Source: Candidatus Poribacteria bacterium
GTDB lineage: Bacteria; Poribacteria; WGA-4E; WGA-3G
Length of the DNA stretch: 64,000 bases
Reading direction: 5' to 3'
Assembly (NCBI GenBank): GCA_965215265.1
Contig: OZ244048.1
Coordinates: forward strand, 2,016,001-2,080,000
Shown here: positions 1-54,415 of the stretch, in pieces
Layout: the number at the start of each line of letters is the position of its first letter
How positions within the stretch are numbered: the stretch's first letter is position 1
Program-made: the position numbers and the translations under genes
The notes under the pieces: model-generated
Databases searched by the model: none
What the model was told of the DNA's origin: nothing
Seen by the model: the letters and a program-made list of their open reading frames with translations, nothing else

Positions 1-953
1 ATAAAGCACTCGTTGCTATAAATGGCGGATACTTTGAAATGGAAGGTCCCTTTCGCGGTGAATCCGTCGGTGCACTGAAAATTAACGGTGAATGGGTTAG
101 TGAACCAGAGCAGGGAAGGGCAGTTATAGGATTCAGAGCAGTTGATGGCAAAACCGAGGCATATATCGACCGGGTTGCTCTCTGGATGGAACTGGTGCTG
201 CCAAGTCAGAACCCCCTCATAATAGACGGTATCAATCGTAATCGTGGAAGAGACGAGTTGGTGCTTTACCGACCTTACTTTCATACGGTGACCTTGACAA
301 TGCCCGATGGTGTTGAGGTTGTTGTCGAAAATGACCAGGTCGTCGGCATCTACGATAGGCAGGGCAGTCTGCACATTCCGTCTGATGGTTATGTGCTATC
401 AGCAAGTGGAAAGCAGCGCACATCACTCTTGGCGGCAGTTGCTATTGGTGATAGGCTGCAAATTCGCAAGACGTTGATTCCCGAACGTGTTGGTAACAGC
501 AGGTTGTGGGCGAGTTGTGAGCACATTATCGGTGGCGGTCCGCTGTTACTACGGAATGGCATCGCAACTCCGAGGCGGGCGTATGAGGTTGAAGGGTTTG
601 ATAGGACGTTTCACAGTTTTTGGCATCCGCGCACTGCAATCGGTAGAAAGGCGGACGGCACGTTGCTTTTTGTGACAATAACGTCAACGGAGGCAGGTGT
701 TCGACGCGGGGTGACGCTGCCAAAAATGACACAGTTATTTTTAGAATGGGGTGCGACGGACGCGCTCAATTTAGATGGCGGGGCTTCTTCTATGCTAATT
801 ATTCAGGATGAGGTGGTGAGTGTCAAGCAGCACGACAAAAAGCAACGAGCTGGTGCACGCGCGAAACCAGCCCGTGGTAATCGTAGAATCCGCCCTTTAC
901 CCAAGCAACAGGGCCGCGCGATTGCAGACGCACTCTTGATTTTTCCGCGTTAA
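1..953 (+). CDS. Phosphodiester glycosidase (NAGPA/DUF2233) family protein, 5'-partial
   Basis: Frame is open from the window edge (KALVAINGGYFEM...). Family motifs INGGYF, IGGGPLLL, HPRTAIG, ALNLDGG. Confidence 0.85.
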   Translation, partial: KALVAINGGYFEMEGPFRGESVGALKINGEWVSEPEQGRAVIGFRAVDGKTEAYIDRVALWMELVLPSQNPLIIDGINRNRGRDELVLYRPYFHTVTLTMPDGVEVVVENDQVVGIYDRQGSLHIPSDGYVLSASGKQRTSLLAAVAIGDRLQIRKTLIPERVGNSRLWASCEHIIGGGPLLLRNGIATPRRAYEVEGFDRTFHSFWHPRTAIGRKADGTLLFVTITSTEAGVRRGVTLPKMTQLFLEWGATDALNLDGGASSMLIIQDEVVSVKQHDKKQRAGARAKPARGNRRIRPLPKQQGRAIADALLIFPR

Positions 954-1073
954 AAAGATTTCTTTTCCCATCATCCGATGTCTCTTTTTGATGATAAACG
1001 TTCGCGCCTATTCTCTCTATATACACACTAGGCCGGTTATGAGGCACGTTGGTACCGTCGACAAATTCGCAGA

Positions 1074-1466
1074 TTAACCTCTGTTCGACTCTGATACAGG
1101 CTTGACTTCAACCAGGGCGATCACCGGTGCTTGTAACAAATGCTGCACGGGTGACAAACTCACTAAAAAATCACACACTCCTGTCAATCCGTTTTTGGCA
1201 TCAACGCTCAAGTCAATGCCAAAAAAGAAACTAATACGCCGGTTTAAGTGCTCTCTCAGTTCAACGAGGACATTGGTGATAGTCAGTTCCGATTTTGCGT
1301 TCGCCGTATTTATGGCAGCGGCTAACGGGACATTTATCTCTAACGTTGTTAGGAGATATCCACTCGGCGTTACCGGTGCTGCTGGAGAAAAAAGATCTTC
1401 CGATTCAACGATTTCTAATTGAAACGTTGCCACGACCGTTTCTAAAGTCCAATTGCTATAAGTTAT
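1074..1466 (-). pseudogene. Truncated PD-(D/E)xK-fold hypothetical protein (same broad family as 33194..33808)
   Basis: Reads I-TYSNWTLETVVATFQL... with ATA at 1466-1464 where ATG is expected, downstream of GAGAAGG. Ends at 'CDF...VEVK' plus a short tail and lacks the 'QCxAExxAA...IYG' half seen in the paralog. Confidence 0.65.
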
Positions 1467-1755
1467 GGAGGGACCTTCTCAGGAATTGAAGTTATATTCG
1501 GTGACTTTATTCTACAAAAATTGCGGGGAAAAAGCAAGAATTATCCACCGTGTCACATAGTTGTTTAGGTTTTTAATATAGTGCGTGATTTTGTCAATCT
1601 CGTGTTTCTCTTGAGATATTTTAAATCTGATAGAAGCACTGAATGAATTCCTCTGGATTGAAAAAAAAACAGTGGACATTTCTACGCAGAATATAGTAAA
1701 ATATTTTTTGAGACATTTGCCACAACGAAAGCAAGATACAAAGGGGGATGGTACA

Positions 1756-2691
1756 ATGCTAATCAATAGAAAACCACTATATGAAAAATCGCCGCGTTTG
1801 TCTCGGCCTTCTATCGGTGATATAAGTAAGAGCATCATCGCACAAACAGATGCCTCTCGCTTTAATCGACGACAATTTATCAAAGTGGCTGCAGGACTTG
1901 CTACCTCTGTTTTTGCAGGAGGAAGCTTGCTTCAAGCAGCGGAAGCTCAGTTCGGATTCCGTGAACATATCCCTTATGATGCGGTTCGTGATATTCACTA
2001 CGGGACCCGCTACGGTAGGATTGAACACCACTATCCGGAGATGAACCCAACCGGTGAGAAATTCACGTTTGTGCGTCTCAAGTACCCAGGCGGCGATTGG
2101 TATACGAATATCGTTAACTACTACCGCTGGCAGTCTGATCTGAAGTTTACGGAGGTGCTGGCAGCGAATACGACGATTGATGTTGAGGTTCGTGAACATC
2201 CGCAATACGTTGATATTGACGACCCTGGGCTCTATGCGTATCCGTTTCTCTTCATGACAGGGCACCGTGGCATTCGGCTTTCTGATGAACAGGTACGCAA
2301 GTTCAGAGAATACTTTGAGCGCGGTGGATTCCTCCACATTGAGGATTGTGATATTCGTCTTAACAACGGTAGAGGCGGTCTGAAGCCGCACATCTATGAG
2401 ATGGTACGCCGGATTTTTCCCGAAAAGAAGTTTGAACGACTTGACACCAGCCATCCGATTTATCACACGCTCTATGCGCACGATGAGTATATGGGGGGAG
2501 ATAAGCGCATCCCTGGACTGTCCGATGCTGATGAGGCAATCATGGAAAATGACCGGATAATGGTCTACTTCTCCCCCAGTGACCTGAATTGTGCATGGGA
2601 AGGTAGGCCCTGTAGCCCTGGTGGTGAGGAACAGCGGGGCTGGGCGTTTGAGCAGGGGATGAATGTCGTCGCGTACGCCCTCACACGGTAA
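1756..2691 (+). CDS. DUF4159 domain protein with twin-arginine (Tat) signal
   Basis: RRQFIK plus hydrophobic helix; FTFVRLKY..GDW, YPFLFMTGH, GGFL..ED, HPIY, GxNVVAYAL motifs. ATG at 1756 after GGGGA (the ORF track starts at 1672). Confidence 0.8.
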   Translation: MLINRKPLYEKSPRLSRPSIGDISKSIIAQTDASRFNRRQFIKVAAGLATSVFAGGSLLQAAEAQFGFREHIPYDAVRDIHYGTRYGRIEHHYPEMNPTGEKFTFVRLKYPGGDWYTNIVNYYRWQSDLKFTEVLAANTTIDVEVREHPQYVDIDDPGLYAYPFLFMTGHRGIRLSDEQVRKFREYFERGGFLHIEDCDIRLNNGRGGLKPHIYEMVRRIFPEKKFERLDTSHPIYHTLYAHDEYMGGDKRIPGLSDADEAIMENDRIMVYFSPSDLNCAWEGRPCSPGGEEQRGWAFEQGMNVVAYALTR

Positions 2692-2754
2692 ATTTAACAA
2701 GTCTATCGGTTGTCGGTTATTAACTGGCACCTGAAAACGAACAAGAGGAAAACC

Positions 2755-4638
2755 ATGAAAAGGATTTTTAGTTCGACTTGCAAGCTACACCAAAAATGTA
2801 CGTTGTTTTGTTTCGTAATTGTGCTCATCGTTCTCGCCCAGTATGCTAACGCACAAGAACGATTCTCAGATGCTGTGGGTCCTGTTACCGTTCAAGAGAT
2901 GACGGCAACAACCCCTTTGGTAGTACCATATATTACATGGGGTGGGGAATCAGCACTTTTCCATGCCAATGGAGGGGTAACGACTCGTCCCGGTACAATT
3001 ATGGCGGAACTCGGCATGAATCTCAAATTAGTGCAAGGTGACAACTTTCAGCAGCAGGTACGTGACTATCTCTCAGGTAAATCTCCGTTCCTGCGTGGCA
3101 CGTTTAGAATGATAGCACAAGCAAGCGAAGCCGTCGGGAGAGATGCGCGTACAAAACCGGTCGTTTTTGGGCAGCTCACCTGGTCGGCAGGTGACCATTT
3201 CGTCGGACGTTCTAATATCCGGAAAATCTCTAACCTCCGGGGCAAAAAACTCGCTATCCAAAAAGGTGGACCGCACGTAGGGATGCTTTATGATATGTTG
3301 AAGACTGCTCGACTTTCGAAGTCACAGGTGGAAATCGTCTGGGTGGATGAATTAACAGGTGTTAATGGACCTGCAGAACGTTTCCGAAACGACGCAACTA
3401 TCGCAGGCTGTTTTGTGATTACACCCGATATGATCGGCTTAACAGGTGGTCCTGAGAACACCGGCACAGGGGCTGAAGGAACCGTCAAAGGCGCGCATGT
3501 TGTCGTTAGTACCGCGACACTCTCTCGTTCTATTGCGGATGTCTACGTCTGCCGTAAAGATTTCTACACCGCTTACAAACCGCTTGTTGAACGATTCTTT
3601 GCCGGTTATCTGAAGGGAGCCGAAGAGGTAGTGGCTCTTAAGAAAGCCTACGAAACGAGCGGCTCCCCAAAATACACACAGCTCCTGACGATGATGCAAA
3701 ACATCTACGGTAAAGAAGTATTACCGACCCTTGAGGAGGATGCCCACGGTTTAATTGCAGATTGCACGTTCGTTGGGCAACCGGGAAATATCGCTTTCTT
3801 CAACGACCCGAGGAACACCATTACCGGTTTTGAAGGCTTCAATAAAGCAGGATTGGATATGGCAATGAATTGGGGGTTTGCAACGCAAAGATATGCTTTG
3901 ATTCCTTCCGACTTAGACTTTAACTCACCAACTTTTAAGAACCTGCTCACTACAACTGTGACGGCTCCTACGCAATTGAAAGCAACACGTTTCAAAAAAG
4001 AGACAGTACGGGCTGAAATTGAATCGTTTAATGAGGACGCAGTGCTCGACGAAAAGACCCTCATTTCCTTCACAATTCAATTTGATGCGAACCAAGGCAC
4101 CTTTAGTGATGCTAAATATAAAGAAGAATTTGATAGAGTTGTAGAACTCGCATCTAAATATGGGAATGCTGCTATTGCGATCAAGGGACACAGCGATCCC
4201 TCTCGAACATTGAGCGTATTAGTAAAAACGGGGCTCCAAACAGGTATTTTGAGACGGACAGGCACGCGAGGCAGCTACAAATATTTTATGGACGGTAAGC
4301 CCTTTAGTTTGGAAGATACTGCGAACTTGATTCGTCTGATTCAGCAGAAGAAGTTCGATGATGGCACCAACGTTGAAAGTCCCTATCAAGTGATGCGGGC
4401 CGCGCTTAAACTTTCCGAGCAGCGTGGGCAAGCAGTCAAACAGTCTATTATCACCTATGCACAGCGCAAAAATGCACGGATTGATCCAGACCAGATTGTA
4501 CCAGTTGGCGTCGGAATTAAGGACCCTGTTATTGCAAAACCGACTAGCCCGCAAGAAGCAGCAGAAAACCGACGCGTTGAATTCGCAGTTATTAAAGTTT
4601 CAGCAGAAGCTGTTGCTGTATCTGATTTTGATTTTTAG
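2755..4638 (+). CDS. NMT1/THI5-like substrate-binding protein fused to a C-terminal OmpA-like domain
   Basis: Signal peptide ending ANA; 'LTWSAGD', 'LRGKKLAIQKGGP'; OmpA-C motifs GHSD...LSEQR...GVG...NRRVEF. ATG at 2755 after GAGG. Confidence 0.8.
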   Translation: MKRIFSSTCKLHQKCTLFCFVIVLIVLAQYANAQERFSDAVGPVTVQEMTATTPLVVPYITWGGESALFHANGGVTTRPGTIMAELGMNLKLVQGDNFQQQVRDYLSGKSPFLRGTFRMIAQASEAVGRDARTKPVVFGQLTWSAGDHFVGRSNIRKISNLRGKKLAIQKGGPHVGMLYDMLKTARLSKSQVEIVWVDELTGVNGPAERFRNDATIAGCFVITPDMIGLTGGPENTGTGAEGTVKGAHVVVSTATLSRSIADVYVCRKDFYTAYKPLVERFFAGYLKGAEEVVALKKAYETSGSPKYTQLLTMMQNIYGKEVLPTLEEDAHGLIADCTFVGQPGNIAFFNDPRNTITGFEGFNKAGLDMAMNWGFATQRYALIPSDLDFNSPTFKNLLTTTVTAPTQLKATRFKKETVRAEIESFNEDAVLDEKTLISFTIQFDANQGTFSDAKYKEEFDRVVELASKYGNAAIAIKGHSDPSRTLSVLVKTGLQTGILRRTGTRGSYKYFMDGKPFSLEDTANLIRLIQQKKFDDGTNVESPYQVMRAALKLSEQRGQAVKQSIITYAQRKNARIDPDQIVPVGVGIKDPVIAKPTSPQEAAENRRVEFAVIKVSAEAVAVSDFDF

Positions 4639-4647
4639 CCGGAATAG

Positions 4648-4764
4648 CAGTGGCAGGGTTCGGTTTTCTTTATCTCTCCTTTCAGGAGAGATAAGTGGCG
4701 AGATAGGTATCTTTCTCTGTCCTTCAGGATAGACAAGATTACCTTTTACTCGCCACCCACTGGG
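4648..4764. repeat. Palindromic intergenic repeat family A (truncated outer element plus complete 71-bp inner element 4694-4764)
   Basis: 4741-4764 is the exact reverse complement of 8648-8671. TGGCAGG / TCCTTCAGGA core is shared with 7460-7557. Confidence 0.8.
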
Positions 4765-4853
4765 GTCGGCGATCAGTTATCAGAAAAAGAAGCGCCTCTT
4801 AAGCGAAACCCATTATTGACTGTTTTTGATGGTTTCCAATAACTGACTGTTCC

Positions 4854-5813
4854 ATGACAGAGATAGGTCTTTTTATGAAATATATTACGGCAGCCGGATC
4901 CAGCATGCAATTTATTTACCTACTGAGTCTGATGGCTTTTGGTCTCCAGATTTGCAGTGCTGACGACAACATTCATAAAGATAACATTGTTGTGATTCTC
5001 GATGCCTCCGGTTCAATGCAGGATAAGTTTAGTGGAGACAGGACGAAATCGAAAATGGAAGCAGCAAAAGCAGCACTACAAGAAGTGCTAGCGAAAGTGC
5101 CTGACAACACCCAGATCGGATTGCTGGTGTTTAGTGGTGCCAATGTCCAAAACGAATGGGTGTACCCGTTAGGGCCCAAGGACATTCAAAAACTGATAGC
5201 GGCCATCCATTTACCACAACCTAGCGGGAACACACCGTTGGGGAAATACATCCGAATCGGGGCAAATCGTCTCCTTGAACAACGCGAAAAACAGTTCAGC
5301 TACGGAAACTATCAGTTGTTAGTTGTTACAGATGGCGAGGCTTCAGATGCTGACAAAGTTAAACATTACACACCTGAAATCCTCAATCGGCAGATTCGCA
5401 TTGATGTTATCGGGGTTGATATGAAGACAGATCACATGTTGGCAAATGTGGTGGATAGTTACCGAAAGGCAGATGATCCGGGGGAGTTGGTAGCGGCGGT
5501 GTCGGCGATCCTTGCGGAGACCGGCGATACAAGCACAGATGTTGGCAGCGAGGATGCTTTTGAATACATTGCGCCGCTTTCATCGGAAATTGCTGCCGAT
5601 TTGATTCAGCGGCTCACAACGCCTCCAAGCAATACTGAAATTGCAGTAAAGTCGAAGGAGTCGACACCATTACCACCGACAACACCGAGAAAAGTGCCGG
5701 CACCAGATCTACAGGGTACTGACTCAGACCCTGGACAAACTACGCTATGGTTTATAATACTTCTGGTTGTGCTTTCTGTTATAGGGTTCTTGGTTTTCAG
5801 AAATAGGAACTAG
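4854..5813 (+). CDS. von Willebrand factor A domain protein with C-terminal membrane anchor
   Basis: MIDAS DASGS...T(SGNTPLG)...VTDG; N-terminal hydrophobic segment; Pro/Thr linker; C-terminal TM helix followed by RNRN. Start may be 4875 or 4905. Confidence 0.85.
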   Translation: MTEIGLFMKYITAAGSSMQFIYLLSLMAFGLQICSADDNIHKDNIVVILDASGSMQDKFSGDRTKSKMEAAKAALQEVLAKVPDNTQIGLLVFSGANVQNEWVYPLGPKDIQKLIAAIHLPQPSGNTPLGKYIRIGANRLLEQREKQFSYGNYQLLVVTDGEASDADKVKHYTPEILNRQIRIDVIGVDMKTDHMLANVVDSYRKADDPGELVAAVSAILAETGDTSTDVGSEDAFEYIAPLSSEIAADLIQRLTTPPSNTEIAVKSKESTPLPPTTPRKVPAPDLQGTDSDPGQTTLWFIILLVVLSVIGFLVFRNRN

Positions 5814-5818
5814 GAGCT

Positions 5819-7414
5819 ATGGACGCTGTTAAGAAAAAGCGCATAATCATCATGGTAGCAAGCTGGCTCATTATCATCGGGGTAGCCGGACTCGTTTATA
5901 AGTTCGTCGTTGAACCGTGGATACGCGACGACCTTGTTAAAGAGACGAGTACCCAACGTTACGCACATACTATCAAGGTGGCACACGACTCGTTTCCGGG
6001 GTATGCAATACTCCGTTCTGCTGCTGTTCAGAATCTGCTGGATCGTCAAGGGATTAAACTCACGTTCGTTGATGATAAGGCGGATTACGTCGGGAGGATA
6101 CGCGCGCTGAAAAGTGGTAAGGTTCAGATGGCAGTATTTACTATTGATGCTTATCTCAAGGCAGGTAGCGTTATCGGTGAGTTCCCGGGTTCGATCGTCC
6201 TCGTGATCGATGAATCTAAAGGGGCTGATGCTATTGTTGCGTATAAGCGAGGCGTACCGCGAATACCGAGTTTGAGCAATCCGCAGGCGCGGATCGTACT
6301 GACCCCGGATTCGCCGAGTGAAACGCTTGCCCGAATCATGATCAACAAGATGAGCCTACCAAGTCTGCCCTCTTCGTGGGCGGTCGAGACAAACGGGGCT
6401 GAAGATGCCTATAAGAAACTCAAGTCCGCTGATCCGGATCAGCCGTATGCCTATGTCATCTGGGAACCTTACGTGACGAAAGCACTCGCTATAGAAGGCG
6501 TGCATCTGCTGCTAGATAGTTCAAAACTCAAAGGTTATATCGTTGATGTACTGGTAGTTCAGCGCGAATTTTTGGATTCACAACGTGAGCTCGTCGTGCA
6601 CGTTGTCCAAGCGTATCTCCGCGCGAACTATGATTACAATAACCAACCTGATGGGTTAGCCTCCTTGATTCAGGCGGATGCAAAGCAGTATGGTGACTCG
6701 CTTAATCGCAATGAGACGGATAAATTGGTCAAAGGAATTGAATGGCGTAACACAGTTGAGAATTACGCCCATTTCGGTATAATTTCCTCTGAACAGGCCA
6801 AAGGTAGCGAGCGCTTGGAGGCGATGATTGCTAAAATTGTGCAGGTACTGGTGCAGACGAATTCAATCCCCGTGCAACCCGTGTCAGGAAATTACGAGGA
6901 ACTCTTCTTTGAGGGTATTTTGCGATCACTTCACCACGATAAGTTTCACCCCGGTATTTTAAACGCAAGCGGGGCTGATGGGTTAGATAATATCTTCGTT
7001 GAATCAACACCTATGGAACAGGTTAGAGAAGAGGCATCACTCAATCCCCTTTCAGATACAAATTGGAATGCACTTGCACCTGTCGCGGCGATGAAAGTAG
7101 AACCAATCCAATTCGGACGCGGGAATGCCCGGATTCTTCCAAACAGTGAACGTGCATTGAAAGAACTCGCTGCAAATCTGAAATCGTTCCCCCAGTACTA
7201 TCTCAGAGTGGTAGGGCATACGCGTCAGGAGGGAGATCCGGCAGCAAATCAGATCCTCGCCTTACAACGTGCTGAGGCCGCAGCAGAATCTCTGAGGCGT
7301 TTCGGTATTGCAAACCACCGTATCCGTGCCATGGCAAGCAACGAAACCTCCACCCAGATGCGCGGGGCAGCAGCACAAAGCGTTACATTTGAGCTCCTCG
7401 GAAAACCGTATTAG
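5819..7414 (+). CDS. Membrane-anchored substrate-binding protein/OmpA-domain fusion
   Basis: N-terminal TM; 'DSFPGY', 'IDESKGADAIV', 'IWEPYV', 'IVDVLV' (NMT1/SsuA-like); C-terminal 'IQF...VGHTR..GD..AN..LALQRA'. Confidence 0.8.
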   Translation: MDAVKKKRIIIMVASWLIIIGVAGLVYKFVVEPWIRDDLVKETSTQRYAHTIKVAHDSFPGYAILRSAAVQNLLDRQGIKLTFVDDKADYVGRIRALKSGKVQMAVFTIDAYLKAGSVIGEFPGSIVLVIDESKGADAIVAYKRGVPRIPSLSNPQARIVLTPDSPSETLARIMINKMSLPSLPSSWAVETNGAEDAYKKLKSADPDQPYAYVIWEPYVTKALAIEGVHLLLDSSKLKGYIVDVLVVQREFLDSQRELVVHVVQAYLRANYDYNNQPDGLASLIQADAKQYGDSLNRNETDKLVKGIEWRNTVENYAHFGIISSEQAKGSERLEAMIAKIVQVLVQTNSIPVQPVSGNYEELFFEGILRSLHHDKFHPGILNASGADGLDNIFVESTPMEQVREEASLNPLSDTNWNALAPVAAMKVEPIQFGRGNARILPNSERALKELAANLKSFPQYYLRVVGHTRQEGDPAANQILALQRAEAAAESLRRFGIANHRIRAMASNETSTQMRGAAAQSVTFELLGKPY

Positions 7415-7459
7415 GAACGGTTTTAACCGTTTTCGTCTATAGGAGCCCAATAAAGGCTG

Positions 7460-7557
7460 CCCAGTGGGTGGCAGGTAAAAGGTTGGCAGGTTTGGCAGGG
7501 TCCGGTTTTCTTTATCCTCTCCTTCAGGACAGATAAAGACTACCTATCCTGCCACTG
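7460..7557. repeat. Repeat family A (partial inner element plus complete outer palindrome)
   Basis: CCCAGTGGGTGGCAGGTAAAAGGT at 7460-7483, then TGGCAGGG...CCTTCAGGACAGATAAAG...CCTGCCACTG. Confidence 0.75.
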
Positions 7558-7631
7558 CTATATTAAAACCCTTACAAATCTCGTCGGAGGGTTCTGATGT
7601 TTTGAATCAAAGCATAAACGGCTTAGGCATA

Positions 7632-7707
7632 GCATAAGAGGGCTCTGGCGAGGTTTCTAAGGGACTTATCAAAGCATCAGGTGTTATAGGGCTGAAATAT
7701 ACGAAAA
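7632..7707 (+). repeat. Degenerate intergenic repeat family B
   Basis: GCATAAGAGGGCTCTGGCGAG...AAAGCATCAG...GGGCTGAAATATACGAAAA; closely matches 13134-13207. Confidence 0.65.
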
Positions 7708-7717
7708 ACGAAAACAT

Positions 7718-8500
7718 GTGGTGAAGAAATTGATTGATCGGAGATTGTTTCAGAGGAAATTCCTACTTCATCTTCTTAGCAACACTTATATTCTCCTCCC
7801 TTTTGCTGCCGGAGGCTCCATCGCTTTTGCAGCCTGGGTATTCAATTTAGAACCGAAGGCACTCTATCTATTCGGTAGTGCGATTCTCAGCATCTTGGTG
7901 CCTATCGGGACCCTAATTAGCAAGTGGGCAACCGGAACAGAAGATATAGCGAAACAGGTTCACAGTGAGATCCTTCACGAAGTTCATCAAAAGCGAGAAG
8001 CAGAACTAAATAACTTACATCAACAACTTGAAGCTGATGGAGATGCCCGAACAGAAACGATGCTTGACGAACTTCGTGCTTTGCATAAATCCTTTCAAGA
8101 AGAAGCGGGGGGCGATGGTTGGTTGGGTGCCCTCCCTATTAGTGTTAGCGCTGATATTACCGATAAGGTTTCTGAACTCTTTACACAAGCAGTAGAGTGT
8201 TTGAAAGACACACTTAAGATGCATCAGAAATTAAGGAATACGCAATTGGCAACTGTCAAAAATGTGCTTCAACAATATCGCGAACAACGGATTGAAGATG
8301 TTCAGCAGACGATTGTTCAATTATCACACCTCTACACCCGGGTACTAACGTTCAATCCTGAAAGCAATGACACAGAGCTGACACGTCTCCGGTCCGAACT
8401 CGACGAAAGCCTCAGTTTTGCCAAACAGGTCGATGCAAAGATACGTGAGTTAACACCACTACATAATAATGATGTACACCAAACAGAAGATCCGAAATAA
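7718..8500 (+). CDS. Hypothetical membrane protein (2 TM + coiled coil)
   Basis: Two N-terminal hydrophobic helices, then a Q/E/L-rich heptad pattern. GTG start. Confidence 0.7.
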   Translation: MVKKLIDRRLFQRKFLLHLLSNTYILLPFAAGGSIAFAAWVFNLEPKALYLFGSAILSILVPIGTLISKWATGTEDIAKQVHSEILHEVHQKREAELNNLHQQLEADGDARTETMLDELRALHKSFQEEAGGDGWLGALPISVSADITDKVSELFTQAVECLKDTLKMHQKLRNTQLATVKNVLQQYREQRIEDVQQTIVQLSHLYTRVLTFNPESNDTELTRLRSELDESLSFAKQVDAKIRELTPLHNNDVHQTEDPK

Positions 8501-8507
8501 CAGATAC

Positions 8508-8580
8508 TTTGTATGCTGCAGCCCATCAACGCCTTATGCTTTCATAAAAACTGTGTCAAATCTCGTCAGAGCCGTTTATG
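8508..8580 (-). repeat. Repeat family B copy
   Basis: Reverse complement reads GGCTCTGACGAGATTTGACAC...AAAGCATAAGGCGTTGATGGGCTGCAGCATACAAAG. Confidence 0.6.
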
Positions 8581-8624
8581 TTTAGATTTTAAAGACTATA
8601 CCTAAGTAGTCTCCGATCTATAGA

Positions 8625-8755
8625 TGGCAGGTATAAGGTTATCTTGTCCCAGTGGGTGGCGAGTAAAAGGTAGCAAAGCGTGTCCTGAAGGACACGACTT
8701 TCTACCTATCTCGCCACTGTCCTTCAGGACAGACAAAGAATACCTAACCTGCCAC
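8625..8755. repeat. Repeat family A, nested (inner 8648-8718 inserted in the outer palindrome)
   Basis: Removing 8648-8718 restores TGGCAGGT..AGGTTATCTTGT/GTCC-TTCA-GGACAGACAAAGAATACCTAACCTGCCA. Confidence 0.75.
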
Positions 8756-8887
8756 GAGATTTGTGCTAAGGTTTACATCATATAGATTGGTGTTGTACTG
8801 CAGTAGACGAAAAAACGAGATTTATAGTGGGTTGAACAATGCATCAGCCTTGTTTGGGCTCCTGTAGACAGAGAAACAAAGAAAAGG

Positions 8888-10696
8888 ATGATAGTTATGA
8901 CACTCTACACATGGCACTACGACAACATCCCGAGCAGCTGGGAATCTATTTTAGAGCGTCTAAAGAAATTTGAAGTACTCGCACAGCAAATCAATGAAAG
9001 AAAAAAGAAGCAGGAAATCGATTCAACCGAAATGCTTAAAAACTTCTATACACATCATAACGAATTGGTGGCGGATACGTACGCGAACTTGCAACACGCG
9101 CAGCTGCACTGTGATGAGACGACTTTAGATACTGCCTTTGTTGAAGCTGTCTGGCTGTCTCTTGAGCACTATCCGGCACTTGTACATCATCCACAGATTG
9201 AGAATTTAGACACAGCCGGTTCTAAAACCTTCACCTTCTTTACACCGGATGCGCCAGCGGCTCCTGACAAACGAGAGCAACTAAAAATAGAACTTCAGCA
9301 GGCATTTAATCTGGATCCGGAAACAGTGGAGGAGCTAACCCGGCAGCTTTATATCCGGACGAGCCCCCTCCGTTATCGGCATCAAATTATGCGGAGTTTA
9401 GAGACGAGCTTCAATCTCATGGCTGCTAACCCGAAACTGGATGTAGCTATCCTACAACTTTTTAGGTCATTATATCCCGGTGCTCCGTTTGAGACAGGCG
9501 AAGTAAAGTTAGTCAAAACGTCTTCCGTGCTCTATTTTTGCTTCCCTACTGAGGCATGGGAAAACGCAGAGGAGCCCAATATCTCTACAGACGAACAGCG
9601 TGAAGAAAGCGAGACATCACAACGCCCACAGGCCTACCGGGAAAAATTTCTGAGAAAAATTTGGGAGGTAGAACCTTTTGCCCATTTTCCCGTGTTCGGA
9701 ACCTTTGACGCAGAAAATCTAGACTTAACCTTCCTTCAGAAAATTTCTGATGAAACTGGATTGCCTTTGGAACTAGTCACATCAACGCTGACGCGTATGA
9801 TAGGTGTCCTCCCTTTAGCTGAACTTGATAAATATCTAATTCACGATACTTGGGGACATCAGTGGCAGGAAAGTCTACTCGATTTTGAGGAACCGTATAC
9901 CGAATTGACTCTGTTTAAACGTCCCTTATCCCTAACTGAAACCGCTTCGGTCTTAGGAGAGCAGACTTCGTTCGCTGCCACATTCGTCAAAACTGAGGCC
10001 GGGACAATAGAACTTGACCCGGTCAAACTACAGCAATTCATCGATGCAGAATTATACGAACGCGCAATCATTGCTTTTACACCTATTCTCGCTGAAATCT
10101 TGGCGGATGTGGTAGAATATAAGTTCCTAAAATTACACCCGAGTCAGGAACACCTGCTGCCGAGTTCTTCGTTACTCAAAGCGTTTCCTAGCAAATTGGA
10201 TTTGACACTTGCAGATTTGCGTACTTGCTTTGTCCATGCCTCCGAAGTCTTCCAAAACTGGGTCGCTTCTGAATCAACACAACAGCAATTACATAACGAA
10301 ATTTGCGAAAAACTCGAAATTCCAAACGACGCAATAAAACACCAGGAACTCTCACAAGTCCTCAGCACCGCGGTCCGACTCTGTAAGGAGCAGCTTCACG
10401 CTTTCTATCAACCGGAATGGACTTGGGAAAAAAGCGAAGCCGGTTATTTGAAACTGAATGCATTTAGCTTCGCAGCACTGAACTTTCTCCGACTTCACAC
10501 CGCGCTTATCCAGACATACAAAGACCTCTCACATATCGAGACATCTTATGATTTCAAAGATATTCTGGTATTGGCGATAGGCACCTTCTTTGAAAGAAAT
10601 CCACAGCAGAATATTTGGCAACTCGACAGTTTTTTAACCCAAGCGTTTCTCCCACGTTGGGAAAAATTGGCTGCAGCGGGCTGTACAGCGTGTTAA
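8888..10696 (+). CDS. Hypothetical protein with HDTWGH putative metal-binding motif
   Basis: Long open ORF with RBS AAGGA; motif YLIHDTWGHQWQE and downstream AEILAD. Confidence 0.7.
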   Translation: MIVMTLYTWHYDNIPSSWESILERLKKFEVLAQQINERKKKQEIDSTEMLKNFYTHHNELVADTYANLQHAQLHCDETTLDTAFVEAVWLSLEHYPALVHHPQIENLDTAGSKTFTFFTPDAPAAPDKREQLKIELQQAFNLDPETVEELTRQLYIRTSPLRYRHQIMRSLETSFNLMAANPKLDVAILQLFRSLYPGAPFETGEVKLVKTSSVLYFCFPTEAWENAEEPNISTDEQREESETSQRPQAYREKFLRKIWEVEPFAHFPVFGTFDAENLDLTFLQKISDETGLPLELVTSTLTRMIGVLPLAELDKYLIHDTWGHQWQESLLDFEEPYTELTLFKRPLSLTETASVLGEQTSFAATFVKTEAGTIELDPVKLQQFIDAELYERAIIAFTPILAEILADVVEYKFLKLHPSQEHLLPSSSLLKAFPSKLDLTLADLRTCFVHASEVFQNWVASESTQQQLHNEICEKLEIPNDAIKHQELSQVLSTAVRLCKEQLHAFYQPEWTWEKSEAGYLKLNAFSFAALNFLRLHTALIQTYKDLSHIETSYDFKDILVLAIGTFFERNPQQNIWQLDSFLTQAFLPRWEKLAAAGCTAC

Positions 10697-10736
10697 ACTG
10701 GGAGCCCTCCGATGCTATGATTCATAGCATAGATAA

Positions 10737-10983
10737 CCTCCGACGAGATTTACACACGAATCAGCAAAGCATCAGCGATGATGGTGATGATGGTACTGAA
10801 ATATACGAAAAAGCATCAGGCGGTAATGGGCTCTTGTATACGAAAATATGAATCTAAACAGAACAGAGAGAGGATTTGGGTGGGCGGGCGACGAGATTTA
10901 CACATGAGCCATCAAAGCATCAGCAATGATGGTACGGAGATAGACGAAAACACATCAGTCTTGTTTGGGCTCCTGTAGACAGA
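10737..10983 (+). repeat. Tandem copies of repeat family B
   Basis: CGACGAGATTTACACA...CAAAGCATCAGC.ATGATGGT occurs at ~10741 and ~10889. CATCAG.CTTGTTTGGGCTCCTGTAGACAGA at 10953-10983 also matches 8842-8872. Confidence 0.7.
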
Positions 10984-10998
10984 AAAGAGATTCGCAAG

Positions 10999-12240
10999 TC
11001 AGACGAACTGCGGGAGAATCTTCTCGCGGAGCCGTTCATACGTGAGCATAGCACCGACAATGTTGCCTGCCGCAGGACCGAGCTGAAGTTGTGCGATAAC
11101 ACCGGAACCGAACAGATTCTCAATAGGATGGAGTTGTAAACTGTCATCAAGTTGAGGGAACCCCCATGGGAGTGGAATCCGGTGTTGCTCGATCAGTTCT
11201 GCTAAAAAAGGATAACGGCAGAGGTTGAATTGATACCCCGTTGCAAGGATAATACGTGAGATGTCATGAAGGGTACCGTGCGTCATCTCAATGTCGAGGC
11301 GTAGCTTGTTTGCGAGGGCAATGCTTGCATTGAAATGCTTTCTGTGCCGACAAGCCTTGATGTTTTGAATCTTCGTTGCAGGATAGAACTCAACGTTTCG
11401 CTGACTCTGTAACGTCTCAGCAATATCCGGTGTGATGCTACCTTCCCCTCTGGCGTGCTGAATCATGTTATAACGTTGTGTCCAGTCCTTTTCTTCTGCG
11501 AATTCAGCGAGACGTTTTGGCCCTACCCACACCGGTGGAAAATCAAACTGTTCTACACGCAAATCTGAGCGAGCAATTAAAGCAACCTTCACTCCGCATT
11601 CGCTTAGCGTTCGTGCCAAGGTTCCGGCCGTCAGTCCGCCTCCAATGATTGCAACCTTTCGGTCTTCGTCGGAGGCTTTATAGTGTGAGGCGTGTATAAT
11701 CTGATCGGGAAAACGCCGTTGCCAGACAGCAAATTCAGGCGGGACATAAAAACAGTCCTCTGTACCGATGGCGAGAATAATACAACGGCTCCGAAACCCT
11801 TCATGCTGTGTAGAAATCAAGCGGAACGGAAAACTGCCCGCACCTTTATCCCACCGCAATTTCGCCACGTCAAATTGATAATAGAGACTATGTACTGAAA
11901 ACTCTGCTATCGCCTCGTTGCAAAAATCCCAGAAGAGTTGTGTTGACGGTTGCGAGTAGGGTGGTGCCAATTCATCAGTGCGGTTGTGACGTTCTGCATA
12001 CTCCACGATACCTAAAGCATCTGGCGTGATGTGATGGACGGCAGGTGAGCGGAGGAACGTCATGCCTTGGCGTTCAGTTTTGTACTGCCAGGCTGTGAGC
12101 GGATGCGGATGCCGGTCGACAATCGCAAGGTGGCTGGCTGCTTCCGGCATGTCACGCAGTATCCGTAACGCGATCGAGATACCGTGTATGCCACCGCCAA
12201 TGATTGTTACGCGGATATTCCGATGGGCAAGGGTTTTCAT
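10999..12240 (-). CDS. FAD/NAD(P)-binding oxidoreductase (class B flavin monooxygenase-like)
   Basis: Two Rossmann motifs (IIGGGIHG, IIGGGLTA), LRSP, LATGY. Confidence 0.8.
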   Translation of the reverse strand: MKTLAHRNIRVTIIGGGIHGISIALRILRDMPEAASHLAIVDRHPHPLTAWQYKTERQGMTFLRSPAVHHITPDALGIVEYAERHNRTDELAPPYSQPSTQLFWDFCNEAIAEFSVHSLYYQFDVAKLRWDKGAGSFPFRLISTQHEGFRSRCIILAIGTEDCFYVPPEFAVWQRRFPDQIIHASHYKASDEDRKVAIIGGGLTAGTLARTLSECGVKVALIARSDLRVEQFDFPPVWVGPKRLAEFAEEKDWTQRYNMIQHARGEGSITPDIAETLQSQRNVEFYPATKIQNIKACRHRKHFNASIALANKLRLDIEMTHGTLHDISRIILATGYQFNLCRYPFLAELIEQHRIPLPWGFPQLDDSLQLHPIENLFGSGVIAQLQLGPAAGNIVGAMLTYERLREKILPQFV

Positions 12241-12241
12241 G

Positions 12242-13132
12242 TTAATCGGCGCTCGGTCCCGGTAGATGAAAGCTCTTCAACGCGAAGGTTTCTGTGAGTA
12301 GACTATCGGTAACGCGGAAACGGGTGTATCTATATTGGACAACTCCGATAGAAGGCGCAACCCAGTACTCTGCCGGGGGACCAATCACAAAAACAGACGG
12401 GTCGTCACTATCCCCATAGACCACCTCTTCGTAAACCACGTACGTGCTATAAGTGCCAGTTGGAACACGAATCGGCACATCTTTTTCAACCACAGTGCGT
12501 GTAACCTTGACTGGGGTTCCCACAGTTTTCTCAAAAACGACCCACTCCTTTCCGACTTCCAACGGGAAATCCCACAAGCGGCGCGCGGGCGCGTGCTTTT
12601 GGTGAAGTGTTGGGTTGGCTAAAATGAAGACATAAGCGTCGAACGCTGATTCTATCATGACTTCCGGCGTTTTGAAAAAGTATGTCGCGGAAATCGGAAA
12701 AGGGAAGACATCGTAAAATTCCGAATCTATGCGGAGGTAATATGCATTCGCAGCTAAATGATCTACGACATCGCGTGGCACTGAGTCTGGTTCAACAGGG
12801 CTGAGTTCACTGATGCTCATCTGTCGATGTGTCGTACCGCCGATGTCCCGTGTCCCTTCAATGCGGACAGTGAATTCCTGATCGGTGTCCACGTTGACGT
12901 AAGTCCAAGCGGTGCCGGTATTAGTGGGGAAATCGATTGCATGAAAGCCTCTGGTATCGGGCGGTGGCAATTTGGTTTCGCCGTGCGGATCCAGGAGCCC
13001 TTCGTCGCCGCAACCTATCAGGCAGCATAAGATAACGCACCCCGCCAAAAGTCCTCTGGCGACGGAAGTATAGGATGCTTTGCATCCTGCAGCTTTAATC
13101 GACGAAAAAAGTGAATAGTATGCTATCATCAT
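12242..13132 (-). CDS. Putative lipoprotein, beta-rich, unknown function
   Basis: Lipobox-like 'CLIG-C-GD'; 'GTAWTY', 'FPLEVGKEW', 'VPTGTY', 'WVAPSIGVV'. The ORF track extension to 13450 overlaps the upstream gene and a repeat. Confidence 0.7.
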   Translation of the reverse strand: MMIAYYSLFSSIKAAGCKASYTSVARGLLAGCVILCCLIGCGDEGLLDPHGETKLPPPDTRGFHAIDFPTNTGTAWTYVNVDTDQEFTVRIEGTRDIGGTTHRQMSISELSPVEPDSVPRDVVDHLAANAYYLRIDSEFYDVFPFPISATYFFKTPEVMIESAFDAYVFILANPTLHQKHAPARRLWDFPLEVGKEWVVFEKTVGTPVKVTRTVVEKDVPIRVPTGTYSTYVVYEEVVYGDSDDPSVFVIGPPAEYWVAPSIGVVQYRYTRFRVTDSLLTETFALKSFHLPGPSAD

Positions 13133-13133
13133 T

Positions 13134-13207
13134 GCATAAGAAGGCTCTGGCGAGATGTACACAAGCATTAACAATACATCAGCAGTTGATGGGCTGAAAT
13201 ATACAAG
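13134..13207 (+). repeat. Repeat family B copy
   Basis: GCATAAGAAGGCTCTGGCGAGATGTACAC...ACATCAGCAGTTGATGGGCTGAAATATACAAG. Confidence 0.65.
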
Positions 13208-13235
13208 AGAATCATTTTTTAAATGAGCCGCTGCC

Positions 13236-15860
13236 CTAATGTATGACGCAGAATTTGCCGGTGGTTTGGAACCCCTTTCCATCGGTCGCCCGGAAGAAGT
13301 ACAGCCCCGTACAAACCATCTCCCCACGTTGATTTGTACAATCCCAATGTGATGCGGAATTGAGAATTTTGATGAGTCTACCGTTGGCATCGTAGATATG
13401 CACAGTGAGTCCTTTTGGATAAAATTCGAGATGCTTACCTTGCCCAGCATAAAGGGGGTTAGGCGCGACCATGACTTTCTGCATTGGGGTGGAAGCTACA
13501 TAGTTGAAGGTCTGGCCATTCCAAATCCGAGTGCCGGTGGTACCTGCCAGCGTTTGTCCTCGAATCCGATAGGTATAAGTGCCAATAGGCGGAAACCCTA
13601 CCGTTCTGAGCATGCCTATCCACTTGTCGGAGTGCGCCGCTGCCGACATGTCCTCACGTGTCAATGTAATTGTATAGTGATGCCCGTTAGGGGATTCGAC
13701 AGTGAGGAGGGGTGTGCTTTGCAGTCGATGTGTGCTAAGTACTGCAATCTGCCATTCCCCAATGGCGCGAGACTGCGTTTCAATGAAAAACGTTGGTGCT
13801 GCGTTTGCTTCAGCAAACGCCGGCGTAATACTATCTGTCACCAGGCTTGGTGTGCCCATAATACCTATTGCGTCAATGGGGACAACGGCGTAGTAATAGT
13901 GGACGTTGCTTGGCTCAAACGAGGGGCTGTTGACATCCACATCCTGAAAGAGGGTGGTATCCTCAAATCGGGTTTGGTTCACCTGCACGCGTCCGACTAC
14001 GGTGATATCGTCCTCTGCGATTCCGTTTTCATCCCGGTCTGCGGCCCCAAGCACATCCTCCTTGCTCTGAAAAGGTTGTGGCGTATCGGTTTCGTTTTCG
14101 AGCACGTAGCGTTTCCGCACGAGCGCCACTTCGTGAATGTTTGTCGGATTGTCAACGTTCCATGTCACTATAGCACTGTTGCTTCCTTGAGAGACCTGGG
14201 CATTTGAGAGGCTGCCCGTTGGCGGTGGACCCGCCATATAACTGACAGAACCGCCAAAACTGCCACCCGGCCTGATAACTCGTTCAACATCAGGATGCAT
14301 GTTAATCAGGATGAGGGTGATTTCCTGAATCTCGCCGCCAAAATCCTTGAACGTTATTTGTGCTTCTTGCGACCGTTGATAGGTGAATGCTTCTCTGATT
14401 TCGGTGGTCCCATCTCTTTTCCTGATGATAAATTTCGCCGCCCATCCACGTAAACCGGTAAACGTATGTCGATCGAGTTCTGCCTGAATATCGCGCTGTT
14501 CATCACGTGTTAGCAGAGTCATGTCTATCGGTGCAAGATCAGCACCGTCAATTTTAACAGCGAATTCTGACATGATGCCTGCCGGTTTGAATACGACGTA
14601 CCGAGCAGAGAAGTGTTCCGGCATTGATTCTGAATCAAAATCGGTGCGGACAGGATAGACACTGTGGACATCGTTTGGGTGAATTGCCACGGGGGGGAAC
14701 CGATGTGCATTGTAGTAGGTGCCCCCATTGGTGCGGAGGCCGGCACGCGCGTGCGTAAAATAATTCCACACCGTAAACGTTTTAAACGCCTCGGCGAGGT
14801 TGGTTCCGCTGTTGGTGAACACATCGTAGAAATTGCCCATTTCTCGGTAGCTGCCATCGGTGGTGTCTTGATAAAGCTGCCGAACGATGTCGTATCCGAA
14901 CCGTTCTGTCATGTACAACGTCCAGATAACGGAGCCGTATTCGTGGTCGCCGATGCGGCTTTCTAGTGATATGTCCGGGCTGAGGAACCACCGACGGAGT
15001 TGGTGTATATAGTAATTGTAGGAGTCGGTTTCGTTGGGTTCATCCGGGTCGGGTATGTTATCGCCGTCGTCAATGCGCCCCCCATCATAAGTCATAATTT
15101 CTATCCACGTTGCGGAAGCTTCCATGAACCAGATCGGCATAGAGGCGTTATAGGCGAACTGGATCCCGTGGAGGAATTCGTGTGCACAAGTTGTTTCAAT
15201 GTAGCGTCTACCTTCCGATTTTCCGACATAGTCGTAGATACGCGAGTTTATCATGAAGTACGGTGCGACTGTGAGCGCGGTAGACAGCACACGTCCTTCG
15301 AACCAATCAGCTGTCGTAATGCCAAGTGCAGGGAAGGTAAATAGGTAGACATCGTACTTGTGATTGCCCCCGTTCTGCATTGCCCAAAAATCTATATAGG
15401 GTACCTTAAATCCCATCAAATCTATTTGGATGCGGTATGAACGTTCCATGGCATCTGCACAAATATCGACATAATCAGGGACACCGTTGCGCGGGTGAAA
15501 ATCCTCAAGTGGCGGCGCTTGCGGCCCGGTGCGTGTGTAGTGAAATCTAAAGTGCGGCGTGTTAAACTGTTCAGGCAGCTCGATTTCTCCGAACAGGCTG
15601 CCGGGCAGTCCAGGGCGCAAGAACATTCCTTTGAGTTTCTGCCGGTGTATTGAGGGGATATGCTGCCAATTCTTGGCAAGGGTGACAAAGGTATCGGTTG
15701 CACATTCCGTGATTTCGCTTGCCGTGTATCTCGGTTTGAGATTGCTAAACTGCAGGGCAGTTTGGAGTGCGCCTTGGAGTTCTGGGTCCGGCGGCAGTGC
15801 GAAGGTAGCGGATATGTATGCTGTAAATAACGCGATAATGAGTATTGGTGACAGTTTCAT
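13236..15860 (-). CDS. Secreted zincin metalloprotease (MXAN_6640-like) with C-terminal T9SS-CTD/FlgD-Ig-like domain
   Basis: Signal peptide; 'HFRFHY...NGVPDYV'; HEFLH + WFMEASATW; C-terminus 'VAPNP...IYDANGRLIK...WDCTN..GE.V.TGLYF'. Confidence 0.8.
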   Translation of the reverse strand: MKLSPILIIALFTAYISATFALPPDPELQGALQTALQFSNLKPRYTASEITECATDTFVTLAKNWQHIPSIHRQKLKGMFLRPGLPGSLFGEIELPEQFNTPHFRFHYTRTGPQAPPLEDFHPRNGVPDYVDICADAMERSYRIQIDLMGFKVPYIDFWAMQNGGNHKYDVYLFTFPALGITTADWFEGRVLSTALTVAPYFMINSRIYDYVGKSEGRRYIETTCAHEFLHGIQFAYNASMPIWFMEASATWIEIMTYDGGRIDDGDNIPDPDEPNETDSYNYYIHQLRRWFLSPDISLESRIGDHEYGSVIWTLYMTERFGYDIVRQLYQDTTDGSYREMGNFYDVFTNSGTNLAEAFKTFTVWNYFTHARAGLRTNGGTYYNAHRFPPVAIHPNDVHSVYPVRTDFDSESMPEHFSARYVVFKPAGIMSEFAVKIDGADLAPIDMTLLTRDEQRDIQAELDRHTFTGLRGWAAKFIIRKRDGTTEIREAFTYQRSQEAQITFKDFGGEIQEITLILINMHPDVERVIRPGGSFGGSVSYMAGPPPTGSLSNAQVSQGSNSAIVTWNVDNPTNIHEVALVRKRYVLENETDTPQPFQSKEDVLGAADRDENGIAEDDITVVGRVQVNQTRFEDTTLFQDVDVNSPSFEPSNVHYYYAVVPIDAIGIMGTPSLVTDSITPAFAEANAAPTFFIETQSRAIGEWQIAVLSTHRLQSTPLLTVESPNGHHYTITLTREDMSAAAHSDKWIGMLRTVGFPPIGTYTYRIRGQTLAGTTGTRIWNGQTFNYVASTPMQKVMVAPNPLYAGQGKHLEFYPKGLTVHIYDANGRLIKILNSASHWDCTNQRGEMVCTGLYFFRATDGKGFQTTGKFCVIH

Positions 15861-54072: not shown

Positions 54073-54415
54073 GGCAGAAATCTTATCCCAATTTAGTTAC
54101 AAAAAATAGTATACCCTAAAAATTCAAAAAAGTCACGTCTTTTCTAATTTTTTACCTTTTTACCTTCTGCCCCCTAAACCGCTAAACTATTAGAGCGTAG
54201 GCTAAAGATAAGATGTCATATCCGATAACAGCCTGAGGCCGTCAAAACTTGCACTCGCCAAAATCGTACCATCATGGCGAAAACGTGAGTGTCTGAACGT
54301 CAGTTATTCAGTGAGGCGAATGCAGAATCGCGCGCAGGTTTAAATCTTCTGGCCGCCACACATTTGGAGTTGCACACGAAAACAGCTTAACTCAAAATTT
54401 TGGCATACAAGAAAC

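Follow-up and report, generated by a model that had tools for sequence, protein, structure and literature searches.

In the classical Psp, Lia and Vipp1 systems (PspA with PspBC, LiaIH, IM30), a small integral membrane partner recruits a protein of the PspA family. A further setting for PspA was predicted in silico in 2024 by Ravi et al. (mSystems; PMC11237479), the available part of which describes operons combining PspA with a transmembrane (TM) 'Snf7' protein, an inactive-AAA/AAA tandem, an ATP-binding cassette (ABC) ATPase, a permease and a PBPB-OmpA fusion, and gives as an example OGG56892.1 from Candidatus Handelsmanbacteria; the OmpA domain was there proposed to bind the cell wall and the substrate-binding protein (SBP) a solute, and the authors suggested that membrane remodelling and solute transport are connected. 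The present analysis concerns a gene cassette that almost certainly belongs to this PspA/AAA+/SBP-OmpA operon family, located in a window of 64,000 nucleotides (bases 2016001-2080000) of the single 4.83-Mb contig, OZ244048.1, of a 95% complete Candidatus Poribacteria genome. Five co-oriented open reading frames (ORFs) on the + strand, spanning positions 2755-10696 of the window, encode in succession an SBP-OmpA fusion (G1), a von Willebrand factor A (vWA) protein, a second SBP-OmpA fusion (G3), a two-TM helical protein (G4) and a cytoplasmic protein (G5); G1, vWA and G3 are referred to below as the trio. The genome as a whole holds a reduced, split form of the operon: the importer has been lost, the PspA-AAA+ pair is unlinked, and G5 stands after G4.

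What the two operon types share is an SBP-OmpA fusion (here present as both G1 and G3), a membrane-anchored helical protein, a PspA-like protein, a tandem AAA+ protein and an ABC pair of the NitT/TauT type; by way of contrast, in the accessible part of the 2024 paper no vWA protein figures, nor does a second SBP-OmpA paralogue, and the example given there has a different gene order. The genome examined here departs further from that type, in that ABC genes were not found, PspA and AAA+ are unlinked from the cassette, and the lineage-specific G5 occupies the place of the importer. As compared with the Psp, Lia and Vipp1 systems, a small membrane partner for a PspA-family protein is possibly again present in the form of G4; however, no homologues of PspB/C, PspF or LiaI were seen, the partners being instead periplasmic wall-binding proteins and a CdvC/CDC48-like AAA+ protein. 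Type I ABC importers of the NitT/TauT group (TauABC, SsuABC) share the NMT1/SsuA-type SBP fold with G1, G3 and a third SBP of the operon, but differ in that the SBPs described here are OmpA-fused, one of them being also membrane-anchored, and in that the cognate permease and ATPase were not found and the importer is dispensable. A literature search, the coverage of which did not extend to subscription journals, returned no experimental study of this operon, and SBP-OmpA fusions only in the Ravi paper and in an unrelated Chlamydia paper. The kind of operon having been predicted in 2024, the new elements are a poribacterial form that is split and lacks the importer, the all-or-none pattern of the trio, G4 and G5, and G5 as what seems to be a substitute for the importer.

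Loci were collected around G3 relatives in species-representative genomes, using as queries both the window protein and an alignment headed by a Desulfobacterales sequence, and the ORFs of the fetched loci were labelled by BLASTP; removal of five duplicate loci (L086, L122, L123, L124 and L127) left 49 non-poribacterial loci with G3. The order established outside Poribacteria was G1 - vWA - G3 - G4 - PspA-like - third SBP (hereafter X) - TauC-like permease - ABC ATPase - AAA+, all co-oriented. Wherever at least 3.2 kb of upstream sequence was available, G1 and vWA preceded G3 (45/45 non-poribacterial and 62/62 poribacterial loci, the vWA genes of L095 and L106, both missed by the positional filter, being counted from the ORF listing), an arrangement that is far from chance. 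G4 followed G3 in 39 of the 41 non-poribacterial loci with enough downstream sequence (the exceptions being L076 and L111), and a PspA-like gene of ~275 aa came next in 36 of 40. Among the 34 loci with at least 7.5 kb downstream, X (~360 aa, secreted), the permease and the AAA+ protein (~606 aa) were each recorded in 28 and an ABC ATPase in 30, although the ATPases of L111 and L117, with no more than 27-31% identity and a distant position, look unrelated; all five downstream components, PspA-like protein, X, permease, ABC ATPase and AAA+ protein, were present together in 26. Shorter variants consisted of L126 and L121, in which PspA is followed directly by AAA+, and of L076, L111, L115 and L117, which end after G3 or G4.

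The earlier note on this stretch had described the first four genes as a candidate system with no transporter. The four genes do not make up a closed unit: they form the front of an operon of about nine, and G4 in a sister genus adjoins PspA rather than G3. The transporter-free state is a lineage-specific loss and does not characterise the system. The proposed search for neighbourhood partners was productive, inasmuch as PspA/IM30-like genes, ABC permease and ATPase genes and, in one poribacterial lineage, an SPFH pair were found in homologous loci.

Profile comparisons gave the downstream proteins of the operon the following affinities. X matched TIGR03427 at 1e-44, below the cut-off of that model; the permease was TauC/SaoP-like; the ABC ATPase matched NtrCD/PhnT models; the AAA+ protein carried PF00004 in its C-terminal half and matched CdvC/CDC48 models below their cut-offs; and the PspA-like family profile matched solved Vipp1/PspA structures at 2.4e-3 to 3.6e-3. 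The bins that carry the operon, representing about ten non-poribacterial phyla in all, are labelled Desulfobacterota, Verrucomicrobiota, Planctomycetota, Lentisphaerota, Sumerlaeota, Omnitrophota, Hydrogenedentota, Myxococcota and Pseudomonadota. Contigs from bins assigned to Parcubacteria, Bathyarchaeia and Bifidobacteriaceae (L090, L113 and L096) also carried the full operon, under labels that are probably untrustworthy as a result of mis-binning, or else reflect transfer. In nine of the listed non-poribacterial loci, the AAA+ gene was followed by a gene for a protein of ~341 aa (for example at 17946-18971 of L069 and 18392-19432 of L084) resembling the archaeosine radical SAM protein RaSEA (TIGR01210 at 9e-30, below cut-off).

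In the genome under study, the PspA-like gene (contig positions 2097349-2098197) and the AAA+ gene (2098331-2100274) form a pair flanked by unrelated, divergently oriented genes, 72.8 kb downstream of G4, which ends at 2024500; the PspA-like protein scored 33.0 bits against PF04012 (E 6e-8), just under the cut-off of 33.9. PspA-like family members, the copy at 2097349-2098197 included, end in an invariant Leu-Pro(-Glu) tail that follows a variable linker. By analogy with the MIM tails of ESCRT-III proteins, the AAA+ ATPase may dock on this tail as on a short linear motif.

No ABC permease or ABC ATPase lies within the four-gene cluster, as the earlier note had observed, and the absence was found to extend to cognates throughout the 4.83-Mb genome: tblastn with three operon permeases gave a best E of 0.45 and tblastn with X a best E of 0.007, while no score with the TauC model NF007545 exceeded 25 bits (cut-off 342). 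The best ABC ATPase matches of the genome were generic ones, 31-36% identical to the operon ATPase, and its only other NMT1-type SBP, at 53942-54322, lies 2 Mb from the cassette. Homologous loci mostly do include the ABC permease and ATPase that the note had named as telling against its reading, but the cognates elsewhere in this genome that it had named along with them were not found.

These observations bear directly on the possibility that G1 and G3 are wall-tethered solute receptors feeding some other, unlinked transporter, with the vWA protein and G4 as bystanders or assembly factors. Such orphaned uptake would accord with an SBP fold of the NMT1/SsuA/TIGR03427 type, with the presence of a NitT/TauT-type importer in the same operon in other phyla, and with the generic ABC ATPases and the additional NMT1-type SBP that the genome retains; but the complete operon has its own free SBP, very distant from both G1 and G3, a genome in one contig and 95% complete yields no sign of a TauC-type permease, and the trio is inherited along with G4, a membrane protein, and G5, a cytoplasmic one, and not with any transporter. 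Orphaned uptake is on this evidence considered unlikely. The earlier suggestion that the cluster resembles an envelope complex more than a plain uptake system was in part upheld, being strengthened by the tie to PspA and by conservation of the genes where no cognate importer was found, and in part weakened, the transporter-free condition having arisen only by loss in this lineage.

The manner in which the components are distributed was established with a phyletic sample of 151 poribacterial genomes, including the present one, of which 100 represent the family to which the window belongs. G3 was recorded in 71 of the 151, G4 in 68, G5 in 66 and a PspA-like protein in 105, and every genome with G4 also had G3 (68/68). 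X was detected at E<=1e-20 in 7/151, comprising strong matches (82-100% identity) in three genomes, G007, G038 and G061, and matches of 26-28% identity in the other four; the importer was not found in 68 of the 71 G3-bearing genomes, and G5 and X never occurred together (0/66 and 0/3, G5 being absent from the three importer-SBP genomes). Within the family of 100, G3 was present in 65 genomes, G5 in the identical 65, G4 in 63 of those, a PspA-like protein in 98 and X in none; the two G3-bearing genomes with no G4 match were G005 (170 contigs, with G5 on a short contig) and G146 (73% complete). A PspA-like gene accompanied G3 in 68 of 71 genomes, the exceptions being the same G005 and 73%-complete G146 together with the distant G004. 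The closest relative of the window genome, G025, which belongs to the same genus and is assembled as one contig, has none of G3, G4 and G5 and has kept the PspA-AAA+ pair (locus L132).

Sixty poribacterial loci extended at least 7.5 kb downstream. G4 and G5 adjoined the trio, as they do in the window, in 32 of these, and in 22 others a DUF4159 gene followed directly after G3 with no G4 nearby. This second arrangement is that of genus g2, the PspA locus of which has the order G4 - PspA-like (two to four copies) - G5 - AAA+, as exemplified by L129 from G030 (G5 at 9042-10916) and L130 from G074 (G5 at 10745-12568), and genome G039, a member of g2 without the trio, has two PspA-like genes followed by AAA+ and neither G4 nor G5 (L131). 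A basal lineage (L066, with G5 at 13371-15044, and G080) has the order G4 - PspA - G5 - AAA+; G5 therefore fills the slot that is held elsewhere by X, the permease and the ATPase. It was apparent that G4 and G5 are able to sit on either side of the operon break, and from the co-occurrence data taken together with the two break points it follows that the trio, G4 and G5 act as an all-or-none set placed upon a near-universal PspA-AAA+ core.

Two further features of these loci were recorded. The tandem PspA-like copies of g2, at 7187-10553 of L130 (G074) and 6491-8902 of L129 (G030), include several shorter ones with in-frame stops, which suggests that the array is under ongoing duplication and decay. 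In one poribacterial lineage (L060 / L122, 12515-15906), the genes for a 216-aa protein and two SPFH/Band-7 proteins lie between G4 and the PspA-like gene.

The explanation that we favour, and to which we would assign about an even chance of being right, is that the cassette encodes a periplasmic head, a receptor or tether fastened to the wall, which is coupled to the PspA-AAA+ core and can operate without the importer. The core would consist of a divergent PspA/Vipp1-like protein of the ESCRT-III type and its dedicated tandem AAA+ ATPase. G1 would be held to the wall through a canonical OmpA-like domain, G3 would be anchored in the inner membrane and bear an atypical OmpA-like domain, and the membrane-tethered vWA protein would bind G1 or G3 via its metal ion-dependent adhesion site (MIDAS), so that the three together could constitute a ligand- or geometry-responsive bridge from the inner membrane to the wall. 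G4, which is predicted to have almost no periplasmic exposure and to present a cytoplasmic bundle, would signal the condition of the bridge to the polymer formed by the PspA-like protein and to the AAA+ remodeller, with G5 joining that relay step in Poribacteria. The SBP-fold domains would serve as receptors or scaffolds independent of the importer, which would be an optional add-on.

Evidence concerning the periplasmic proteins was obtained from profile matches and from conservation among homologues. The N-terminus of G1 resembles a signal peptide, with a single hydrophobic stretch at residues 9-27, and the protein scored 25.4 bits against Pfam NMT1, over the cut-off of 20.5, and 22.2 bits against Pfam OmpA, under the cut-off of 27.2; its two OmpA-pocket residues, the Asp of GH[SA]D and the Arg, were invariant in 110/110 homologues. 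The vWA protein, with one C-terminal TM at residues 292-310, scored 51.3 bits against VWA_2 and 49.2 bits against VWA, and the MIDAS that had been described as intact proved to be so throughout the family, the DxSxS, T and D residues being kept in 114, 114 and 113 of 114 aligned homologues, respectively. G3, with one N-terminal TM at residues 7-25, scored 49.1 bits against OmpA (PF00691; cut-off 27.2) and 18.5 bits against NMT1, slightly under the cut-off of 20.5, and matched TIGR03427 at 2e-8 and SsuA_fam at 1e-7, both far under the NCBIfam cut-offs; its profile matched the solved OmpA-like domains of YiaD, Pal and OprF at 1e-8 to 3e-11. G1, G3 and X were mutually very distant, the best comparison giving 26% identity over 186 residues and the others patches of ~45 residues, and as judged from their sequences are old paralogues rather than recent copies.

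The Asp of GHTD and the Arg of RA in OmpA-like domains form what we take, from the literature on Acinetobacter baumannii OmpA and on Pal, to be the diaminopimelate-binding pocket. Both residues of the PF00691 pocket are present in G1, whereas in G3 the canonical Asp is replaced by Arg in 116/118 homologues while the pocket Arg is kept in 116/118; because Arg stands in place of the usual Asp, binding of the wall by G3 would appear less certain than that by G1, or else of different specificity. In having an N-terminal TM, a C-terminal OmpA-like domain and matches to YiaD, YfiB and Pal, G3 resembles the OmpA-type anchors of the MotB/YiaD/YfiB/Pal group; unlike them, it has an SBP insert of ~380 residues between anchor and OmpA-like domain, a TM devoid of acidic residues, and the Asp to Arg exchange in the pocket.

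The same features could be read structurally, the trio being a staple that fixes the wall and the inner membrane to each other and so determines the geometry of the periplasm, with no link to PspA-AAA+ in this genome and with synteny elsewhere reflecting shared envelope regulation. The inner-membrane anchor and OmpA-like domain of G3, the canonical OmpA pocket of G1 and the long flexible tether of the vWA protein would suit such a staple, as would the retention of PspA-AAA+ in cassette-less genomes and the distance of 73 kb between the two loci here. What makes it improbable in our estimation is that G4 and G5 face the cytoplasm and in g2 lie inside the PspA-AAA+ locus, yet occur only in trio-bearing genomes, that the G4 then PspA-like order is conserved outside Poribacteria (36/40 loci), and that a PspA-like gene is present in 68/71 G3-bearing genomes.

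Positions and make-up of the individual genes are collected in Table 1, in which the four genes described in the earlier note as an SBP-OmpA fusion, a vWA protein, a further SBP-OmpA fusion and a two-TM protein, all co-oriented, reappear without amendment. From G1 through to G5 the intergenic gaps measured 215, 5, 303 and 387 nt; the start codon of G3 lies 5 nt past the vWA stop codon, just as had been noted.

Table 1. Genes of the cassette and the adjoining DUF4159 gene (positions are those of the 64,000-nucleotide window).
Gene	Position	Strand	Product
G1	2755..4638	+	627 aa; secreted NMT1/SsuA-like SBP fold and C-terminal OmpA-like domain with ~55-residue insert
vWA protein	4854..5813	+	319 aa; signal peptide, vWA domain on the periplasmic side with all MIDAS residues, linker rich in Pro, Ser and Thr, C-terminal TM anchor
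G3	5819..7414	+	531 aa; N-terminal TM anchor, SBP-fold domain, C-terminal OmpA-like domain
G4	7718..8500	+	260 aa; N-in TM hairpin, TM2 helix extending into cytoplasmic helical bundle; large unannotated family
G5	8888..10696	+	602 aa; cytoplasmic, mostly helical orphan; beyond the coordinates of the earlier note, co-inherited with the cassette
DUF4159 protein	1672..2691	+	PF13709 at 135 bits; twin-arginine-type signal (RRQFIK); neighbour, membership of the system doubtful

The two TM stretches of G4 were located at residues 24-42 and 48-66. An AlphaFold model built on a 46-sequence alignment (predicted local distance difference test score, pLDDT, 80) showed a positively charged N-terminus, a tight TM hairpin, and a long helix that prolongs TM2 and leads into a four-helix bundle at around residues 110-245; on the topology so predicted, this bundle must be cytoplasmic. 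The family is a large one: out of 1.84 billion, 911 cluster representatives (50% identity) matched with E<=1e-3 and 757 with E<=1e-10, and its relatives recovered by word-index search were all named 'hypothetical protein', with no entry from Handelsmanbacteria. Pfam and NCBIfam gave no informative match, the lone NCBIfam row being a 17-bit, chance-level match to an ACT domain; the G4 profile against PDB sequences gave a best E of 0.051, to unrelated proteins; and the model in Foldseek gave nothing at E<=1e-3, with CdvB chains appearing only at E~1. The best VIA wide match of the model (Z 11.6, root mean square deviation 4.3 over 152 residues) was to generic helical bundles, and hhalign comparison with the PspA-like family returned a probability of 0.7%. 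Because the sequence, profile and fold searches gave no specific match, neither the XpaC-like identity put forward in the earlier note nor a 'Snf7-like' one could be shown; G4 is membrane-anchored and helical, but that it is the 'Snf7' protein of the Ravi operon type could likewise not be shown. A predicted complex of G4 residues 67-260 with the PspA-like protein scored 0.04, 0.34 and 0.08 against a mark of 0.32, values that speak neither for nor against binding.

G5 has no TM, and its model (pLDDT 76) is mostly helical; the protein carries an invariant IHDTWGHQWQE stretch. Searches of Pfam and NCBIfam returned no match and that of the Atlas no usable one, and relatives were detected in Poribacteria only. 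The whole 602-residue model gave nothing in Foldseek at E<=1e-3, a search that, having been run with the entire chain, barely tested single domains, and the best VIA wide match (Z 6.1) was to an 80-residue helical hairpin.

A number of considerations weigh against a periplasmic head coupled to the PspA-AAA+ core. G3 lacks the canonical Asp of the OmpA peptidoglycan pocket, which makes its binding to the wall uncertain, and none of the searches connected G4 with a known fold or with ESCRT-III, PspA or any other family. The importer is present in most non-poribacterial loci, where one SBP or more may chiefly serve transport. The PspA-AAA+ pair is present in 98/100 family genomes with or without the cassette, so that the core works without the head, and absence of the cassette from 35/100 makes it accessory; what connects the two loci of this genome is the synteny observed in other genomes together with nested co-occurrence. 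Genomes that are related do not count as independent samples, and since both presence and absence were encountered within only three genera, the pattern could have arisen through no more than three gains or losses.

The patchy distribution raises the question of whether the cassette might instead be a conflict- or phage-related envelope module on an accessory island, serving for instance superinfection exclusion or anti-phage membrane defence. Its occurrence in 65/100 family genomes and its absence from a same-genus relative would fit that description, as would a weak TerY match of the vWA protein in PADLOC (2.2e-5), the sole match obtained there, and the report, in the available part of a 2026 preprint (10.64898/2026.10.24.761521), of 15 huge-phage loci in which PspA neighbours complete ABC transporters. 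Pairwise Nei-Gojobori comparisons with three importer-less relatives (L031, L019 and L015) gave ratios of nonsynonymous to synonymous substitution rates (dN/dS) of 0.05-0.07 for G1, 0.12-0.17 for the vWA protein, 0.06-0.09 for G3 and 0.11-0.16 for G4 at dS values of 0.74-1.32, distant pairs being saturated and yielding no value, and all four genes are under strong purifying selection. That selection, with no sign of a diversifying component, a gene order conserved across phyla, the housekeeping-type genes in the flanks, the want of any nuclease, protease, toxin or other effector domain, and the failure of the other five proteins to match any PADLOC system model combine to make a conflict module very unlikely.

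This type of operon bears on how bacterial PspA/Vipp1 polymers are recruited and recycled, in that it pairs PspA with a CdvC/CDC48-like ATPase; according to the available part of a 2025 review (PMC7619361), a Vps4-like ATPase 'appears absent in bacteria'. The poribacterial versions amount to a natural dissection, the importer being gone and the operon cut at two places in two genera, and the joint retention or loss of trio, G4 and G5 against a constant PspA-AAA+ pair points to which parts communicate; the same pattern suggests that SBP-OmpA proteins have a job beyond uptake. More generally, and with doubt outweighing confidence, it is tentatively proposed that PspA/ESCRT-III-AAA+ cores accept exchangeable heads, represented here by the trio with G4 as adaptor and with SBP folds as receptors or tethers, and that poribacterial G5 took over both the slot and the role of the importer, which would make it a natural non-homologous replacement inside a membrane-remodelling machine. 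On that reading, G4 would be the first known receptor recruiting a bacterial ESCRT-III-type polymer according to the condition of the periplasm. The analysis also defines G4 as a large unannotated family and flags G5 as a lineage-specific part. The uncultured state of Poribacteria sets a practical limit.

As regards the surroundings of the cassette, the DUF4159 gene in Poribacteria always adjoins it, being located either upstream of G1 or directly 3' of G3, and was not detected in non-poribacterial loci; the idea of a Bat/aerotolerance operon, which had been entertained on account of this neighbour, was for that reason dropped. Promoter-like matches (19 against 13.5 expected) and terminator-like matches (10 against 9.3 expected) stood at chance level, and Rfam gave no match in window positions 1-12000. 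Beyond G5, on the - strand at window positions 12242-15860, there are two long ORFs of 402 and 874 aa, neither with a Pfam match, which overlap by ~215 nt.

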